Positions 42,394 to 48,274 of a stretch of 64,000 nucleotides of DNA are shown here, one piece after another. The stretch's first letter is position 1. Each line of letters starts with the position of its first letter. The notes beneath the pieces are model-generated. The model searched no databases. It saw only the letters and a list, made by a program, of their open reading frames with translations, and had not been told where the DNA came from. The position numbers were made by a program, and so were the translations under genes. The stretch covers positions 39,195-103,194 of the forward strand of contig JANQEA010000072.1 in NCBI GenBank assembly GCA_028278555.1. The letters run 5' to 3'. This DNA comes from Candidatus Bipolaricaulota bacterium (GTDB lineage Bacteria > Bipolaricaulota > Bipolaricaulia > UBA7950 > UBA9294).

Positions 42394-42531
42394 CCACCAA
42401 GAGAACCGCTGAGCGGTTCTCTCACGCGCCGGCGCCGCCTGTGCGGCGACTGCGCGAACTCATCCCACCGAGAGAACCCGTTCATTGGCGATTCTCTCAC
42501 GCGCCGGCGCCGTCTGTGCGGCGACTGCGCG
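42394..42531. repeat. Two tandem copies of a 71-75-nt intergenic unit containing hairpins
   Basis: A 40-nt core TTCTCTCACGCGCCGGCGCCGYCTGTGCGGCGACTGCGCG occurs at 42417-42456 and 42492-42531 (39/40 identical). Both are preceded by CCACC(A/G)AGAGAACC. Confidence 0.7.
42401..42421. promoter_or_regulatory. Perfect 9-3-9 palindrome, candidate TetR-family operator
   Basis: GAGAACCGC-TGA-GCGGTTCTC lies between tetR and the downstream ABC genes. A degenerate second copy is at about 42472-42498. Confidence 0.35.
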
Positions 42532-42548
42532 CAGGGCTCTTCTCGTCC

Positions 42549-42597
42549 GCGGATGGACTCACTTGACTCGCCTCGCAGGACAAGTGAGTCCATCCGC
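42549..42597 (-). terminator. Perfect 17-bp hairpin overlapping the last 12 codons and stop of tetR
   Basis: GCGGATGGACTCACTTG-15 nt-CAAGTGAGTCCATCCGC. The tetR stop (42559-42561) lies inside the left arm. Confidence 0.4.
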
Positions 42598-43179
42598 GAT
42601 GATCTGCGGCGCCAGGTCGACCATCGATGTGTAGAGCGGTCCGGGAATCCGGTCCCGGTTGAATGCGAGCATCTTCACCAGGCCGAGCGAGTAGGAGATC
42701 AGGAAGGGATCCCCCTCGATGATCTCGCCTCGCTCTTGGGCTTCAGCGATCTTCTGAAGCATCGGTGCGAATGTCGGGGCGACCTGCTGCAAGACCGCGT
42801 CGTAGTCGATCACCGACGCGATCCGCTCAATCTCCGATGGGTCGTCCATCAGAATGCGCGCCATCGCGTTCTCCTCCATCTCACGGACAATCCCCTTCAT
42901 CAGCAGGATCAGCGCCTCGCGTGTGTCGTCGGTCGTTCCGAACGACTCATCGGTCAGCCGCTGCATCATCGCCGGGATCTCCTGCATGAAGACCTCGACG
43001 AAGAGCTTCTCCTTGCTGTCGAAGAAGAGGTAGAAGCTCGCCTTGGCGATGCCGACCGGCTTCGTCAGATCCTCGATCGTCGTCTTCTTCAGCCCATAGC
43101 GGAGAAAGCACGTGCGGCCTGTCTCCAGCAGCCTCTCTCGGATCGTCGTCTTCTCTACATCTGTGAACGCTCTCGGCAT
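42559..43179 (-). CDS. TetR/AcrR-family transcriptional regulator
   Basis: N-terminal HTH TIRERLLETGRTCFLRYGLKKTTIEDLTKPVGIAKASFYLFFDSKEKLF. Confidence 0.85.
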   Translation of the reverse strand: MPRAFTDVEKTTIRERLLETGRTCFLRYGLKKTTIEDLTKPVGIAKASFYLFFDSKEKLFVEVFMQEIPAMMQRLTDESFGTTDDTREALILLMKGIVREMEENAMARILMDDPSEIERIASVIDYDAVLQQVAPTFAPMLQKIAEAQERGEIIEGDPFLISYSLGLVKMLAFNRDRIPGPLYTSMVDLAPQIIADGLTCPARRVK

Positions 43180-43557: not shown

Positions 43558-44415
43558 ATGGATCTGGCCGAGAAGTCACTTGAGCTACTCAAATCGCTGG
43601 AACGACATGCAGAACACCTTCCCTATAGTCGTGACGATCTCCGCACAGCGTTCTTCCTGAAGGTCGTTGAATGCTTGAATGCGTTCTTCTTTGCGCATCT
43701 GAGCGTTGATCTTGCGTCACGGATCGACGCAGGACAGATCAAGCTTGCACTTCAGCCGGGTCACGTCCGACCAGAGAACCTAGAGAAGATTCTGTGCCTC
43801 GACCGCCCCCCATGGAGAGCCAACTACGCGGCCAGCGTGAATCGCCATCTTCTGGTCGATACCTGGGCGGCCTTTGAGGCGTGCAATGCCGGTATCGCGT
43901 ATGAAGTACTCTCAAGGGCAGAAGTGGAGAAGATGCAACTCGCTACGTTCCATGAGGTATGCAAGGTGCTCGCTCGAAGCGGTGTGGCACTCGATTCAGA
44001 CGCAGAGGACCGGCTGAGGCAGAAGCTCAGGACTAGGCACATCCCGATTCCTCGTATGTTCGCTGCCATTGTCAAGAGTGGCAGTCGGCAATACGGACGC
44101 GACCGAAGGCGTGACATGGCATTCCTGGACTTGTATGGGCGCTTGCGGAACTCAATGCACTCGAACTTCGTTTATCACGGCCAGGCGAGGAATTTAGTGT
44201 GGAGGGGTACGGAATTCAGGTTCGAGGATGGCCGCTTCCCGAGGTTCTCTTGCTCCGAGGATGCGTTCCCATATCTCCTGCTCGATATGGTTGACGAGCT
44301 CACACAGGTCTTTGACTCAGCAGTTTCTGTTGTGGATCACAATGAGGTCATTCGGGATCCGATCGAAGAACCGGGATCTCATATCCGGGTCGAAAAGCCA
44401 GAAGGGAGTTCCTAA
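43558..44415 (+). CDS. Hypothetical protein with possible HEPN-type Rx5H motif
   Basis: 285-aa all-helical-looking ORF in low-GC DNA. LYGRLRNSMHSNFVYHG near the C-terminal third resembles HEPN/Abi RNase motifs. AGGGAG lies before the ATG. Confidence 0.45.
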   Translation: MDLAEKSLELLKSLERHAEHLPYSRDDLRTAFFLKVVECLNAFFFAHLSVDLASRIDAGQIKLALQPGHVRPENLEKILCLDRPPWRANYAASVNRHLLVDTWAAFEACNAGIAYEVLSRAEVEKMQLATFHEVCKVLARSGVALDSDAEDRLRQKLRTRHIPIPRMFAAIVKSGSRQYGRDRRRDMAFLDLYGRLRNSMHSNFVYHGQARNLVWRGTEFRFEDGRFPRFSCSEDAFPYLLLDMVDELTQVFDSAVSVVDHNEVIRDPIEEPGSHIRVEKPEGSS

Positions 44416-44674: not shown

Positions 44675-45694
44675 CTAGGGCTCGGCATTGGTACGGGGAG
44701 GCAAGAGCTTCCGATAGATCTCGATGATCAGGTCGTCAATGCGATTCCAGTTGAATGAGTCGTCACTGGTGCCTTCGTACAGGTCAATCATCCTGTAATC
44801 GGACAGGTCGGGATTCCCGCCTTCTGCGATCACTTCGGCGCTTGCCCAGGGGAGGAGTCGCCAATCCGCAGGTAGTTCGGGATCGATCCGCGCTACGACT
44901 TGTGCCACGTTGTTGTAGTAGTCATAGAGGAACATCTCCTTCGTGTACTGGCGGTTCTCCTCCTCGTTGTAGTACTCGTCATCCTCTTCATAGGTCCAAT
45001 CGTCGTTCCCGTCCTCTTTGTGCATCTCCCGCAGACGCTCGATCCAGTCGTACTCGATCTCCTCGGACTCCGAGTAGTCTAGGAGATACTCCACGAACTG
45101 ATCGGAGTAGAACGAGTCAGCGATCGCCGTGATTCCTGCCCCCATGAACCACAGTATGAGTCCGCCGTTCAGGAGGAGTTCCTCCATCACGATCATGATG
45201 TCGCCCGTGAACCCACCGAATGTCGAGTGGAGACCAGCATCCTCAATCTCGAAGTGCCTCTCCGCGACCATCCACGACAGGAGCTCTCGAACGCGACGCT
45301 CATCTGCGTCGTGGTATGCCATAGCTGCCCGAAGTGGAATCGGAGAAGATGTGTCTCGTCGTAGTGTCCCGCTACCGGGATCGAAAGCGAACACTTTGCG
45401 GCCCGACCTGAGAGCATAGTCCCGTTCGAACGATACCCAGAACGACTTGCAGGACGAGCCGCCCTCGAGGTAGATGAGGCCGGTGCAGTCCAAGATCGTG
45501 GGGATGATCTCACTGCTGACGGGTTTCGAAGGATCCGGCTCCTGACGCGGGAAGGTCACGGCGTTGACGCTCTTGGGGAGTAACTTGCGCAGCTTCTTCA
45601 GTGCAGCGTCGTCGTCGTAGGAATGGGACACGAAACAACTATCAGGTAGATCTCCCGGTTCGACAACACTTCGTTTTGATCTGCTCTTGCCCAT
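44675..45694 (-). CDS. TIR-like domain protein (one clear, one possible second TIR-like module) with acidic C-terminal region
   Basis: SCFVSHSYDDDAALKKLRKLL...GLIYLEGGSSCKSFWVSFERDYALRSGRKVFAF fits the TIR/DUF1863 pattern (hhSHS..D ... S.W...E). A second stretch AAMAYHDADERRVRELLSWM is weaker. Confidence 0.55.
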   Translation of the reverse strand: MGKSRSKRSVVEPGDLPDSCFVSHSYDDDAALKKLRKLLPKSVNAVTFPRQEPDPSKPVSSEIIPTILDCTGLIYLEGGSSCKSFWVSFERDYALRSGRKVFAFDPGSGTLRRDTSSPIPLRAAMAYHDADERRVRELLSWMVAERHFEIEDAGLHSTFGGFTGDIMIVMEELLLNGGLILWFMGAGITAIADSFYSDQFVEYLLDYSESEEIEYDWIERLREMHKEDGNDDWTYEEDDEYYNEEENRQYTKEMFLYDYYNNVAQVVARIDPELPADWRLLPWASAEVIAEGGNPDLSDYRMIDLYEGTSDDSFNWNRIDDLIIEIYRKLLPPRTNAEP

Positions 45695-46153
45695 CGTACC
45701 GACCGCCGTCTTGCTGCTTCTCTACCTCCGTTGGAGCTGCACGCATGCTCGCATCTCATCCAGTCCGCTCACGTCAGCGGTGCGTCAGATTCTCTCGCCA
45801 GGCAAGGTTATCATACATTCGGAGAAGAAGGGAGACAAGTAGTGGGCTCTGGGAGAGACCGGGGAGGCACAGACCATAGCTCGGCGCAGAGATGAGGTAT
45901 GTATCCCCACACACGATCCCCGTGGAGACCATATAGACTGCAGGAATCAGTGCAAGTAGGAATCCTGCCCTCTCACGACAGAATACCCGGGCAATCATGC
46001 GTCATGAGCTTGCTGTGGAGGTTGCATGGTTGTAGGGTGGAATGCGGGGATGCTAATGGCACTGTTGGAGACGGAAGAACACGGGGAGAGGAGCGAGACT
46101 TGAGAGGGCTGCACTGAGCGGGCAGCAGTCATTGTCAGCCGCCAAGCAGGAGT

Positions 46154-47056
46154 GTGAGGATGGGATCGGATGCGCTTGTCACTCTGCTCACGTGGGATCG
46201 CCTTGTGCCTTGGAAGGTTCTGTCGCTGCCCGGACGAATCACAGACGACTTCGTCCCAGTGGGATATGGATCCAGGAGCACCGTGTTTCGGGGCCGAGCC
46301 AAGCAGAAGGGCAGCACTCTCTGGGTTGTCACCAGACCTAGGCCCGAGGGCCTTCATCCGCCCTCGCTTGTGGCCCGGCTGACGATCGAGGGACTCTACA
46401 CGAAGCAGGATTGTCCCGCACGCTATCGGTCGAAGGCTGTGGAGGAGTTGCTCGAGCAATGGGGCTGGGTCGCTGTGAGCAACCCTGAGGAGAGTGAGTT
46501 CTTCGAACTCAACGATGCGAGTTCAGCCCTTCAAACCCTTCAGATCAAGTCATTCAGCGTCATGCGGAGCTTCCCGGGAGGTACGGAGAGAGTCCAAGAG
46601 GCGTTTGGCTCTTGCATGAGACAGGCCCGCGATCGAGTAGTGTTCCTGAGCCATACACATCAGGAGAGCGCGGAGTTTGCTCTGGCTCTATCGAGAGAGC
46701 TGAGAGAAGAGGGCTTCAGTCCTTGGCTGGACTCCCTCACTCTGCCGTCGTACAAGATCGATCGTGTGGCAAGTCCCTCGCCTAGGCGACTCTCGAAGCT
46801 GATTCGGATCGGGATCCAGAGGAGTAGTCTGGCGGTGGTCATCGGAACCGAGAGCTTCGGGAACACAGTATGGACGAGCAGAGAGCGGGAGTGGATCCGT
46901 GCGCGGAGGAGGCAGAGCGAGCAGTTTCGTTGCGTCGAAATCGAGCGGGGAGCGAGGAAGCTGCGCAGCTGCGATGGCAGGTTTGCCGAAGAACCGCCCA
47001 GAGCCCTCGCTCGTAGGATCTCTGCTTGGTGGCAGGAGAGCGGGGCAAGCCGCTAG
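46154..47056 (+). CDS. TIR-domain protein with uncharacterised about 165-aa N-terminal domain
   Basis: C-terminal RVVFLSHTHQESAEFALALSRELREEGFSPWLDSLTLP...IQRSSLAVVIGTESFGNTVWTSREREWI matches the TIR layout, including the W..xE glutamate. The start is GTG 46154 or ATG 46160. Confidence 0.7.
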   Translation: MRMGSDALVTLLTWDRLVPWKVLSLPGRITDDFVPVGYGSRSTVFRGRAKQKGSTLWVVTRPRPEGLHPPSLVARLTIEGLYTKQDCPARYRSKAVEELLEQWGWVAVSNPEESEFFELNDASSALQTLQIKSFSVMRSFPGGTERVQEAFGSCMRQARDRVVFLSHTHQESAEFALALSRELREEGFSPWLDSLTLPSYKIDRVASPSPRRLSKLIRIGIQRSSLAVVIGTESFGNTVWTSREREWIRARRRQSEQFRCVEIERGARKLRSCDGRFAEEPPRALARRISAWWQESGASR

Positions 47057-47122
47057 ACATGAGACTCAAGCGGTCGGCCGCGGCGGTCTTGGAAATGTTG
47101 GGATGAGGTGCGGAGACATCAG

Positions 47123-47674
47123 ATGAAGGACAGAGAACCAGTGGACCTGCAAGGCAAGCTAGTCGGTTTGGATTCGGAGAGCTATGGGCCGGAGCATCGG
47201 AAACACACGTTAGACCTATACACGGCATACGCGCAGACAGTCGAGTGGGTGAGCGATCGGCGCCAGAGAGCCAACTCGTTCTTCCTCTCGATCAACACGG
47301 CGGTCATTGCGCTCATAGGATACGCTCAATCGGTTGGAGGAGTGGACATGGCATCACCGATCAACCTCCTCGTGCCACCTGCCGGGATGATCATCTGCTA
47401 CACATGGTATCGGGTGCTTCGATCATATGGGGGATTGAACAAGGGGAAGTTCGACGTCATTCTAGCGCTCGAGGAGATTCTGCCAGTGCGCCTCTTCAAA
47501 GCGGAGTGGGTGGCGCTTGGAGAAGGGCGAGAGCCAAGACGGTACAAGCCGCTTGGCAAGCTTGAGGCCGTGATTCCTTGGGTCTTCTTTGCCATACATC
47601 TTGCTGTTGCTTCTCTTGCGGTCTACAACTGGCTCGCCATCGGTATGTGCGAGCGAATCGCGGTTCGCCCATGA
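47123..47674 (+). CDS. Three-TM membrane protein (SLATT/RipA-like?), candidate effector
   Basis: ATG 47123 after GGAG (alternative GTG 47108). LYTAYAQTVEWVSDRRQRANSFFLSINTAVIALIGY (TM1), INLLVPPAGMIICYTWYRVL (TM2), AVIPWVFFAIHLAVASLAVYNWLAI (TM3). The family name is from memory only. Confidence 0.6.
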   Translation: MKDREPVDLQGKLVGLDSESYGPEHRKHTLDLYTAYAQTVEWVSDRRQRANSFFLSINTAVIALIGYAQSVGGVDMASPINLLVPPAGMIICYTWYRVLRSYGGLNKGKFDVILALEEILPVRLFKAEWVALGEGREPRRYKPLGKLEAVIPWVFFAIHLAVASLAVYNWLAIGMCERIAVRP

Positions 47675-47754
47675 TCGAGTGATGGTGCAGAGGCCAGGGG
47701 ACACAGTCCGAACTCCTTTGGCCGGATGGCTCCGATGTGGTAGCGTCCAGCGAG

Positions 47755-48000
47755 ATGAGCTCTCGACGGAGTGCACGGACAGTTCGAGTCTACTGCGCTA
47801 GCTGCGGCTTCTACCTCTACAAGTACCGGAAGGGTGGGGGCGGGAAGCTGGTCAAGTGCTTCGTGGACAAGATCGTCCAGGACAACACAGAGGGGGATCT
47901 GCGCTGTCCGAGCTGCGGGCAGGCATTCGCCCGAGAGACGATGGTCTACGGCCGGCCGGCGAACAAGATCATCCAGGGGAAGGTGACGGTGAAGCGGTGA
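47755..48000 (+). CDS. Small zinc-ribbon protein (hypothetical)
   Basis: CASCG...CPSCG pairs in an 81-aa basic protein. The track ORF starts at 47737. Confidence 0.45.
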   Translation: MSSRRSARTVRVYCASCGFYLYKYRKGGGGKLVKCFVDKIVQDNTEGDLRCPSCGQAFARETMVYGRPANKIIQGKVTVKR

Positions 48001-48073: not shown

Positions 48074-48274
48074 ATGAGTGGCACCGAACGGAGCAGGATA
48101 CGGCCCGGCTCAGAGGTGCAGATCGTGCAGAAGCAGGATCAACGAACCGGCGTTCTGACCAGAGGAATTGTCAGGGACATCTTGACGAAGTCCGCAACCC
48201 ATCCACATGGAATCAAGGTCCGACTCGAGACCGGTGAGATCGGCCGGGTGAAGGAAATCGTATCGGAGAGCTGA
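48074..48274 (+). CDS. YwbE-family (DUF2196) small protein
   Basis: IRPGSEVQIVQKQDQRTGVLTRGIVRDILTKSATHPHGIKVRLETGEIGRV matches the YwbE pattern. Confidence 0.7.
   Translation: MSGTERSRIRPGSEVQIVQKQDQRTGVLTRGIVRDILTKSATHPHGIKVRLETGEIGRVKEIVSES

Follow-up and report, generated by a model that had tools for sequence, protein, structure and literature searches.

The present analysis concerns three neighbouring genes, here named A, B and C, in a 64,000-nucleotide stretch of DNA (hereafter the window) from Candidatus Bipolaricaulota bacterium (assembly GCA_028278555.1, contig JANQEA010000072.1, positions 39,195 to 103,194 of the forward strand). Gene A is transcribed divergently from genes B and C, which follow each other on the plus strand (Table 1). 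A first-pass annotation had described the group as a candidate defence module in which two TIR-type proteins, one of them with a possible sensor domain, accompany a small membrane effector. An open reading frame (ORF) scan recovered the three genes and every peptide motif quoted for them, save the start of gene B, which the scan places at GTG 46154 and which the source gene call (298 aa) and an alignment with 22 homologues move to ATG 46160. With this start, the divergent layout stands, but the spacer between A and B measures 465 nt and not the 459 nt given initially. The gene A peptide contains CFVSHSYDDD, KSFWVSFERDYA and AMAYHDADERRVRELL as well as an acidic stretch rich in Tyr, Asp and Glu, that of gene B contains VVFLSHTHQES and SLAVVIGTESFGNTVWTSREREWI, and that of gene C contains DRRQRANSFFLSINTA. 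Ribosome-binding sites of the GGAG type were read upstream of both B and C, and the terminator scan detected no terminator-like site between them, so that the gap fits co-transcription of the two genes. Within the A-B spacer, a single weak promoter-like site was found on the minus strand, and no regulatory RNA was matched in Rfam. The decisive evidence for a link between a TIR protein and a membrane effector came from the genomic neighbourhoods of the family to which gene C belongs.

Gene C encodes a member of the Pfam family PF24838, which bears the name 'octameric membrane protein family (8xMP)' in that database. The match reaches 116 bits against a cut-off of 30 (E=1.5e-33) and covers model positions 1-134 of 136, while PF24838 is carried by all 36 database homologues of C. 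The three transmembrane (TM) helices previously proposed for the protein fit both the hydropathy profile and the AlphaFold2 monomer model (predicted local distance difference test, pLDDT, 86.7; helices at residues 25-71, 73-117 and 144-181), the second helix being weakly hydrophobic. According to the predicted topology, a long cytoplasmic helix runs into TM1, TM2 continues into a conserved cytoplasmic loop of 45 residues, and TM3 follows. The residues that are invariant or nearly so in the family (R46, R47, N51, S101, Y102, N106 and K109) cluster at the predicted cytoplasmic membrane face, R47, N51, N106 and K109 being the invariant ones. No solved relative of C was found by sequence. The resemblance to SLATT/RipA-type effectors that had been suggested was not borne out, since none of 28 8xMP members matched the SLATT models at E<=10 and C alone gave no such match at E<=1. 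The identification of C with ThsF, the type V Thoeris effector, was likewise rejected on profile evidence (0/28 members matching DUF2270, PF10028, at E<=10), as was a PycTM-like identity (no PADLOC match at E<=1). Literature searches for 8xMP retrieved no paper describing the family or the origin of its Pfam name, and a search on octameric TIR-linked membrane proteins found nothing. C may be a homo-oligomeric membrane protein and putatively an octamer.

The neighbourhoods of 8xMP genes were surveyed in GTDB species representatives, with one genome per species, in which 187 relatives were found across many bacterial phyla, candidate phyla radiation (CPR) bacteria and archaea. A TIR gene was adjacent to 8xMP in 61 of the best 80 loci (a ThsB-like ORF in 59, and a CAP12/Pycsar-type TIR or a TIR-STING protein in two), and the ThsB-like ORF lay nearly always directly upstream on the same strand. 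Three further loci among these 80 end at a contig edge. When ThsB-like ORFs beside 8xMP were checked against Pfam, 64 of 71 corresponded to ThsB_TIR and 18 to TIR_2. Two TIR genes stand beside a single 8xMP gene in at least 10 of the 59 loci, for example in L002 and L005 (L numbers designate the loci used for comparison). Furthermore, a look-up of exact proteins in metagenomes and genomes revealed a TIR_2 or ThsB_TIR gene immediately adjacent in all five 8xMP homologue contexts, and TIR and 8xMP genes occur together on each of the three plasmids inspected, namely those of Synechococcus elongatus (pIITB6_1), Clostridium perfringens (NZ_CP065633.1) and Halorubrum lacusprofundi (pHLAC01). The adjacency of 8xMP and TIR genes is thus systematic and goes far beyond chance, and the TIRs involved come from five different lineages at the least. 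The recurrence of the small membrane protein beside TIR genes, which the first-pass annotation had proposed as a check, is supported.

Some of these loci deserve separate mention. On the C. perfringens plasmid (L102, 1998-4311), a caspase-family gene, a TIR gene, 8xMP and a second TIR gene form one operon, which resembles a cross between type IV Thoeris and the 8xMP class and in which the two effectors may share one signal. On pHLAC01 a divergent TIR gene lies beside the TIR and 8xMP genes, which is the layout of the window. Several 8xMP loci are surrounded by toxin-antitoxin genes, transposases and RhuM genes, and viral carriage was seen in only four IMG/VR loci. The family also associates with TIRs that are normally regarded as CBASS and Pycsar NADase effectors: 8xMP adjoins a TIR-STING protein in L052 (2740-4552) and is divergent from a CAP12/Pycsar-type TIR protein in L026 (1133-2684). 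In addition, a 477-aa ORF in L053 (605-2038) comprises 8xMP (residues 32-169) and an NMT1/THI5-like periplasmic substrate-binding domain, and may be a true fusion or a merged ORF.

Regarding gene B, it encodes a TIR protein with intact catalytic motifs. It matches TIR_2 at 31.9 bits against a Pfam gathering threshold of 28 (E=2e-7), and the profile of its family matches solved TIRs, including AbTIR and PdTIR, at E=3e-9 to 2e-8. The residues W238, T239 and E242 are invariant across 23 B homologues (W238-T239-x2-E242), and W238-x3-E242 is aligned to the WTEYE motif of AbTIR-type structures. The AlphaFold2 model of B (pLDDT 89; predicted template modelling score, pTM, 0.88) retrieved exclusively TIR domains when used at full length in Foldseek, e.g., those of RPP1, AbTir and EcThsB. 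At the sequence level, its TIR resembles the TIR_2 domains of AbTIR type and not any Thoeris TIR characterised so far. No match to the latter was obtained at E<=1e-3, and there was no similarity at the same threshold to the short ThsB-type TIRs in the available part of the table of Yirmiya et al. (bioRxiv 10.64898/2025.12.03.692087). Two more specific assignments were rejected, as the match to PADLOC PDC-S66 is confined to the TIR core (residues 162-252, E=6e-7) and ThcB4 of NCBIfam (Thoeris type III) is matched at 23 bits, below the cut-off of 220.

The N-terminal part of B, which had been described as an uncharacterised domain of roughly 165 aa, is a strongly conserved domain of about 155 residues to which no Pfam, PDB or Foldseek assignment could be given. 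When its profile was run against 1.84 billion representative proteins, 132 proteins were recovered, nearly all of them 280-420 aa long and with the domain at the N-terminus. Pfam scanning of 84 of these 132 proteins found TIR_2 in 59, ThsB_TIR in one and no other families. Given that only TIR families were found with it, the N-domain is a dedicated, as yet unnamed partner domain of TIR that is met only in fusion with it. The sensor role proposed for this domain is plausible.

The pair formed by B and C is not restricted to the window. Locus L001 contains a 297-aa B orthologue (68% identity, with the same N-domain) and, after it, a 171-aa C orthologue (67-72% identity). The genes flanking this second pair, which include acetyltransferases and a resistance-nodulation-division (RND) adaptor, are unrelated to those flanking the pair in the window. 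Nucleotide similarity between the two loci starts at 46152 and is limited to the two coding regions, the A-B spacer not being conserved. The presence of the pair in unrelated flanks, with similarity confined to the coding regions, indicates that B and C travel as a cassette. They move as a unit, and we lean towards the view that this cassette was acquired horizontally. A B-type TIR was found beside 8xMP in none of the best 80 genome loci, and the window represents a rare TIR/effector combination.

Other members of the B family have different neighbours. Directly downstream of a 72%-identical B homologue in L091/L092, a group II intron reverse transcriptase (RVT_1 and GIIM; L091, 4295-5635) occupies the position that 8xMP has in the window. 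In L093 (1243-5220), a 62%-identical B homologue lies by ankyrin, MAP3K_TRAF_bd/TPR-S and TPR-S-Patatin proteins, a setting that is a different candidate conflict-system neighbourhood for the TIR family of B.

The status of gene A is less straightforward. Taken alone, it matches ThsB_TIR marginally (21.8 bits against a cut-off of 21.2), falls below the cut-off for TIR_2 (20.6 bits against 28) and gives a weak PADLOC ThsB match. Its profile matched nothing in PDB, and in hhalign the A and B families were paired at a probability of 2.5%, weakly but in the correct register. At the family level, TIR_2 is matched by 12 of 22 relatives (best 3e-8) and ThsB_TIR by 7 of 22, and the motif SFWVxFERDYA, including the glutamate E90 of W-x3-E, is invariant in the alignment. 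Because of this family-level support, gene A appears to be a weaker but real TIR-family protein. The claim that both divergent genes are of TIR type is secure for B and more tentative for A, where its relatives support it, and the W-x3-E glutamate is indeed kept in both (E242 in B, E90 in A), being invariant in each family. The protein consists of an N-terminal TIR-like domain, a conserved middle part, an acidic linker and, at the C-terminus, the conserved motif NWNRxDDLII. A second TIR-like module, which had also been suggested, received no support, as no profile matched beyond residues 21-105.

The relatives of A were also examined for partners. Neither 8xMP nor a B-type gene was found near A relatives in any of 51 loci (48 metagenome loci and three longer contigs), and all-against-all clustering of the neighbours in these loci revealed no recurrent partner. 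Gene A is, moreover, absent from L001. On both grounds, gene A is probably a stand-alone TIR gene within the same low-GC insert and not a conserved part of the B and C pair, and the idea that the three genes constitute one conserved module is not supported by the comparison. A separate observation concerns the Nitrospira-related contigs L099/L100 (552-5335), on which a 444-aa A homologue comes after genes for a 589-aa SIR2_2-Macro protein and a 295-aa CAP12/Pycsar-type TIR on the same strand; several TIRs and a SIR2-Macro effector could make up one system there.

The surroundings of the three genes are summarized in Table 1. The segment at 43-48 kb has a guanine-cytosine (GC) content of 55.5-59%, against 62-66% on either side. 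This dip is the only mark of the insert, since no tRNA, integrase or convincing flanking repeat that might represent the border of a mobile element was found around 43-48 kb. Both flanks are made up of housekeeping genes, those on the left being a MacB/FtsX-LolA-like ABC system and a TetR gene and those on the right YwbE, a spermidine-synthase-like gene and a BNR protein. In agreement with the first-pass annotation, no SIR2, SLOG, Macro or cyclase gene was detected within about 10 kb of the module (ORFs scanned at 34.5-58 kb). The same low-GC insert contains a 285-aa ORF that matched nothing in Pfam, PADLOC, NCBIfam, PHROGs or PDB. No homologue of it turned up in the nine loci of the A and B families that were searched, and it could be a further cargo gene of the insert. 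Directly after gene C, where the GC content is still low, lies a gene for a zinc-ribbon protein, which is absent from L001 and is followed by the YwbE gene. In the gap that separates the MacB-like operon from the TetR gene, there are direct repeats and a perfect inverted repeat, which may serve as operators or terminators. At a distance from the module, the window also contains a cyclic di-GMP (c-di-GMP-I) riboswitch aptamer.

Table 1. Coordinates of the genes and other features of the window.
Feature	Position	Strand	Size	Remarks
Gene A	44675-45694	minus	339 aa	ORF scan
Gene B	46160-47056	plus	298 aa	ATG start according to source gene call and homologue alignment
Gene C	47123-47674	plus	183 aa	ORF scan
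B-C intergenic region	47057-47122	plus	66 nt	GGAG ribosome-binding site about 8 nt before the ATG of C
A-B divergent spacer	45695-46159		465 nt	presumed to hold the promoters of A and B
Promoter-like site in the A-B spacer	45838-45810	minus		weak
ORF of the low-GC insert	43558-44415	plus	285 aa	convergent with gene A
Zinc-ribbon protein gene	47737-48000	plus	87 aa	double CxxC
YwbE/DUF2196 protein gene	48074-48274	plus		
Direct repeats	42413-42456 and 42488-42531		44 nt	95% identical, 75 nt apart
Inverted repeat	42548-42598		18 nt	perfect, after the direct repeats
c-di-GMP-I riboswitch aptamer	2730-2815	minus		61 bits, well over the Rfam gathering score

With respect to known systems, a survey of TIR genes in defence islands has been reported recently, in which 29 putative Thoeris types were annotated and types V-XI were validated (Yirmiya et al., December 2025). 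Type V comprises ThsB and the three-TM DUF2270 protein ThsF, with 3'cADPR (a form of cyclic ADP-ribose) as the signal, and type VII comprises ThsB and the SLATT protein ThsH, with cADPR as the signal (Yirmiya et al., 2025). Table S1 of that survey, in the part available, lists a putative effector class '3TM' with at least 100 occurrences, separately from the class 'DUF2270'. All 13 '3TM'-linked TIR sequences obtained from it have their best matches among the TIRs beside 8xMP in our loci. One of them (2678864786) is 96.9% identical to the TIR of L075 and 95% identical to that of L087, both of which stand beside 8xMP, and the '3TM'-linked TIRs are in turn the best matches for most ThsB genes beside 8xMP. 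We infer from this TIR identity that the '3TM' class of the entries at hand corresponds to the 8xMP family. The architecture of a TIR and a three-helix protein, presented at first as not yet characterised, is accordingly one that the accessible entries already catalogue as a candidate Thoeris type, and it is not a new discovery. Like the predicted '3TM' type, the window has a TIR gene beside a small three-TM protein, in this case of the 8xMP family. However, its TIR protein is a 298-aa combination of the N-domain and TIR_2, while the TIRs of the '3TM' type, in those same entries, are short and of the ThsB type.

The pair may also be compared with the validated types. The effector of type V is, like C, a small protein with three membrane helices, and in type V a TIR-made signal leads to membrane damage, as is proposed for C; its predicted assembly is a homo-oligomeric ring with positively charged pockets between the protomers (Yirmiya et al., 2025). 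However, 8xMP shows no match to PF10028, as already mentioned. Type VII Thoeris and the SLATT proteins of CBASS offer a similar parallel, namely a membrane-spanning effector activated by a nucleotide made by a TIR or a cyclase, and some TIRs beside 8xMP share a TIR cluster with type VII TIRs. In contrast to SLATT effectors, besides the absence of model matches, the 8xMP topology combines three helices with the conserved cytoplasmic loop described above. As for type IV Thoeris (a TIR with the caspase-like ThsE, and N7-cADPR as the signal), 64 of 70 8xMP-adjacent TIRs have a type IV TIR (that of E. coli 328 or of Pseudomonas sp. 1-7) as their closest relative among the characterised Thoeris TIRs. 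This likeness fits the C. perfringens operon that carries both a caspase-family gene and 8xMP, and could mean that the signal to which many 8xMP proteins respond is of the cADPR type. The window, however, lacks a caspase gene, and the sequence of B shows no relation to type IV TIRs.

Small three-TM proteins are also the effectors of Pycsar and Pucsar, as proposed here for C, and PucTM (pJV1-spdB3 3TM family) is a nucleotide-activated abortive-infection effector that forms a hexameric, cylindrical homo-oligomer (bioRxiv 10.64898/2026.08.12.744502). Those effectors are partnered with cyclic nucleotide monophosphate (cNMP) cyclases, whereas no such cyclase lies near the module and C has no PADLOC match; membership in Pycsar or Pucsar was rejected on this basis. 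Types I and II of Thoeris were rejected as well, there being no SIR2-SLOG effector (ThsA) or TM-Macro effector among the ORFs scanned. With regard to what is expected of a Thoeris-type system, B is a TIR protein whose catalytic glutamate is intact, and 8xMP is an effector gene recurrently adjacent to TIR genes, an adjacency seen in two of six contexts of the B family.

Taking these data together, we favour the interpretation that B and C form a two-gene Thoeris-like anti-phage cassette in which a TIR signal activates a membrane effector, and we regard it as probable rather than assured. According to this model, B would detect infection via its dedicated N-terminal domain, and its TIR, using E242, would convert NAD+ into a small signal derived from ADP-ribose. 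The signal would bind the conserved, positively charged cytoplasmic face of C, and the activated homo-oligomeric C would open or disrupt the inner membrane, so that the infected cell stops growing or dies before phage release (abortive infection). The production of a signal by B, the binding of the ligand, the oligomeric pore and the defence function are all proposed by analogy with Thoeris types II, V and VII, of which the validated types V and VII do work in this manner. A more ambitious reading, which we put forward only tentatively and consider rather doubtful as a whole, holds that 8xMP is a new class of membrane effector gated by TIR signals, with a fold unlike solved structures and with a distribution across bacteria and archaea and at least five unrelated TIR lineages. 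In the window it would be driven by a previously undescribed sensor, the N-domain with TIR_2, that makes a signal unlike those of types I-XI, and gene A would be a possible second input.

A number of observations weigh against the two-gene cassette. The window is not a classical multi-system defence island. No PADLOC model recognises C, and no solved relative of C was found by fold, the best Foldseek match having E=0.47. About a fifth of the 8xMP loci lack a detectable TIR neighbour, and some of the TIR-less 8xMP genes are flanked by large pentapeptide-repeat or ankyrin proteins. In addition, none of the 30 tested operons of Table S2 in Yirmiya et al. (2025) belongs to the '3TM' class. Finally, four of the six B-family contexts (L091/92, L093, L094/95 and L096) have no 8xMP within 4 kb. 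As a side observation on the pentapeptide-repeat and ankyrin contexts, these are found in L030 (2542-3981), L084 (2360-3961 and 4552-5853) and L082 (4426-6267), L084 being a locus without TIR neighbour from a Methanotrichaceae archaeon.

The frequent absence of 8xMP from the B-family contexts means that B may work alone. It could be a self-contained abortive-infection protein, consisting of an N-terminal sensor and a TIR NADase that depletes NAD+, with C as an accessory or unrelated neighbour. The N-domain and TIR do constitute a fixed two-domain family, with approximately 130 representative clusters, and the TIR of B is most like the AbTIR-type NADases. However, the pair is kept as a unit in two unrelated genomic contexts, and the linkage of 8xMP to several TIR lineages suggests that it depends on what a TIR makes rather than on one particular partner. 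Moreover, short contigs or an interrupting group II intron affect some of the contexts without 8xMP. We thus believe that a stand-alone role of B is unlikely, albeit the most serious of the alternatives.

It could also be argued that all three genes act together, with A and B serving as alternative TIR sensors, in the manner of multiple ThsB proteins, that feed the effector C. Such a system would agree with the common occurrence of two TIR genes beside one 8xMP, with the divergent TIR beside the TIR-8xMP pair on pHLAC01, with the W-x3-E glutamate kept in A and with the Nitrospira-related A homologue that lies beside a SIR2-Macro gene and a further TIR gene. It is at odds with the absence of 8xMP, of B-type genes and of any recurring neighbour from the loci of A relatives (0/48 metagenome loci and 0/3 longer contigs), with the lack of A in the orthologous B and C locus L001 and with the divergent transcription of A, and we deem it improbable. 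Least convincing of all is a role outside immunity, in which 8xMP would serve as a membrane sensor or regulator or provide immunity against the TIR, or in which the pair would belong to another NAD-linked membrane process: the approximately 20% of 8xMP genes without TIR neighbour, the housekeeping flanks of the window and the apparent fusion to a periplasmic-binding-protein-like domain in L053 would suit it, but the closeness of most 8xMP-neighbouring TIRs (64/70) to validated type IV Thoeris TIRs, the plasmid operon joining 8xMP with a caspase-family protein and two TIRs, the toxin-antitoxin, transposase and RhuM surroundings of several loci, and the choice of the TIR clusters concerned by Yirmiya et al. 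(2025) for their enrichment beside defence genes all make it very improbable.

The first-pass annotation was thus supported in part. Its core, a TIR protein with a membrane effector in a Thoeris-like arrangement without canonical partners, appears to be right and agrees with the TIR-8xMP adjacency in the genome, exact-protein and plasmid comparisons and with the L001 pair. It was mistaken about the identity of the membrane protein, about gene A as a conserved component and about the architecture being uncatalogued.

Thoeris-type TIR signalling links bacterial, plant and animal immunity. To our knowledge, each Thoeris type validated so far has brought to light either a novel signal derived from NAD or a novel mode of cell killing. 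Since the pairing of a TIR with a small membrane protein had already been flagged by a systematic survey, the locus brings no conceptual surprise, but the 8xMP family is structurally novel. It is also widespread and present on plasmids of tractable organisms such as Synechococcus elongatus, Clostridium perfringens and haloarchaea. The particular twist of the window is that the effector is paired with a TIR family whose unnamed N-domain occurs only with TIR; this N-domain is a candidate phage-sensing module. Proof that 8xMP is indeed a TIR-activated membrane effector would lengthen the list of validated Thoeris types and bring in a new effector fold, and if the reading with a novel sensor is also true, the locus would represent a new type of Thoeris in which the sensor domain, the effector fold and perhaps the signalling molecule too are new.

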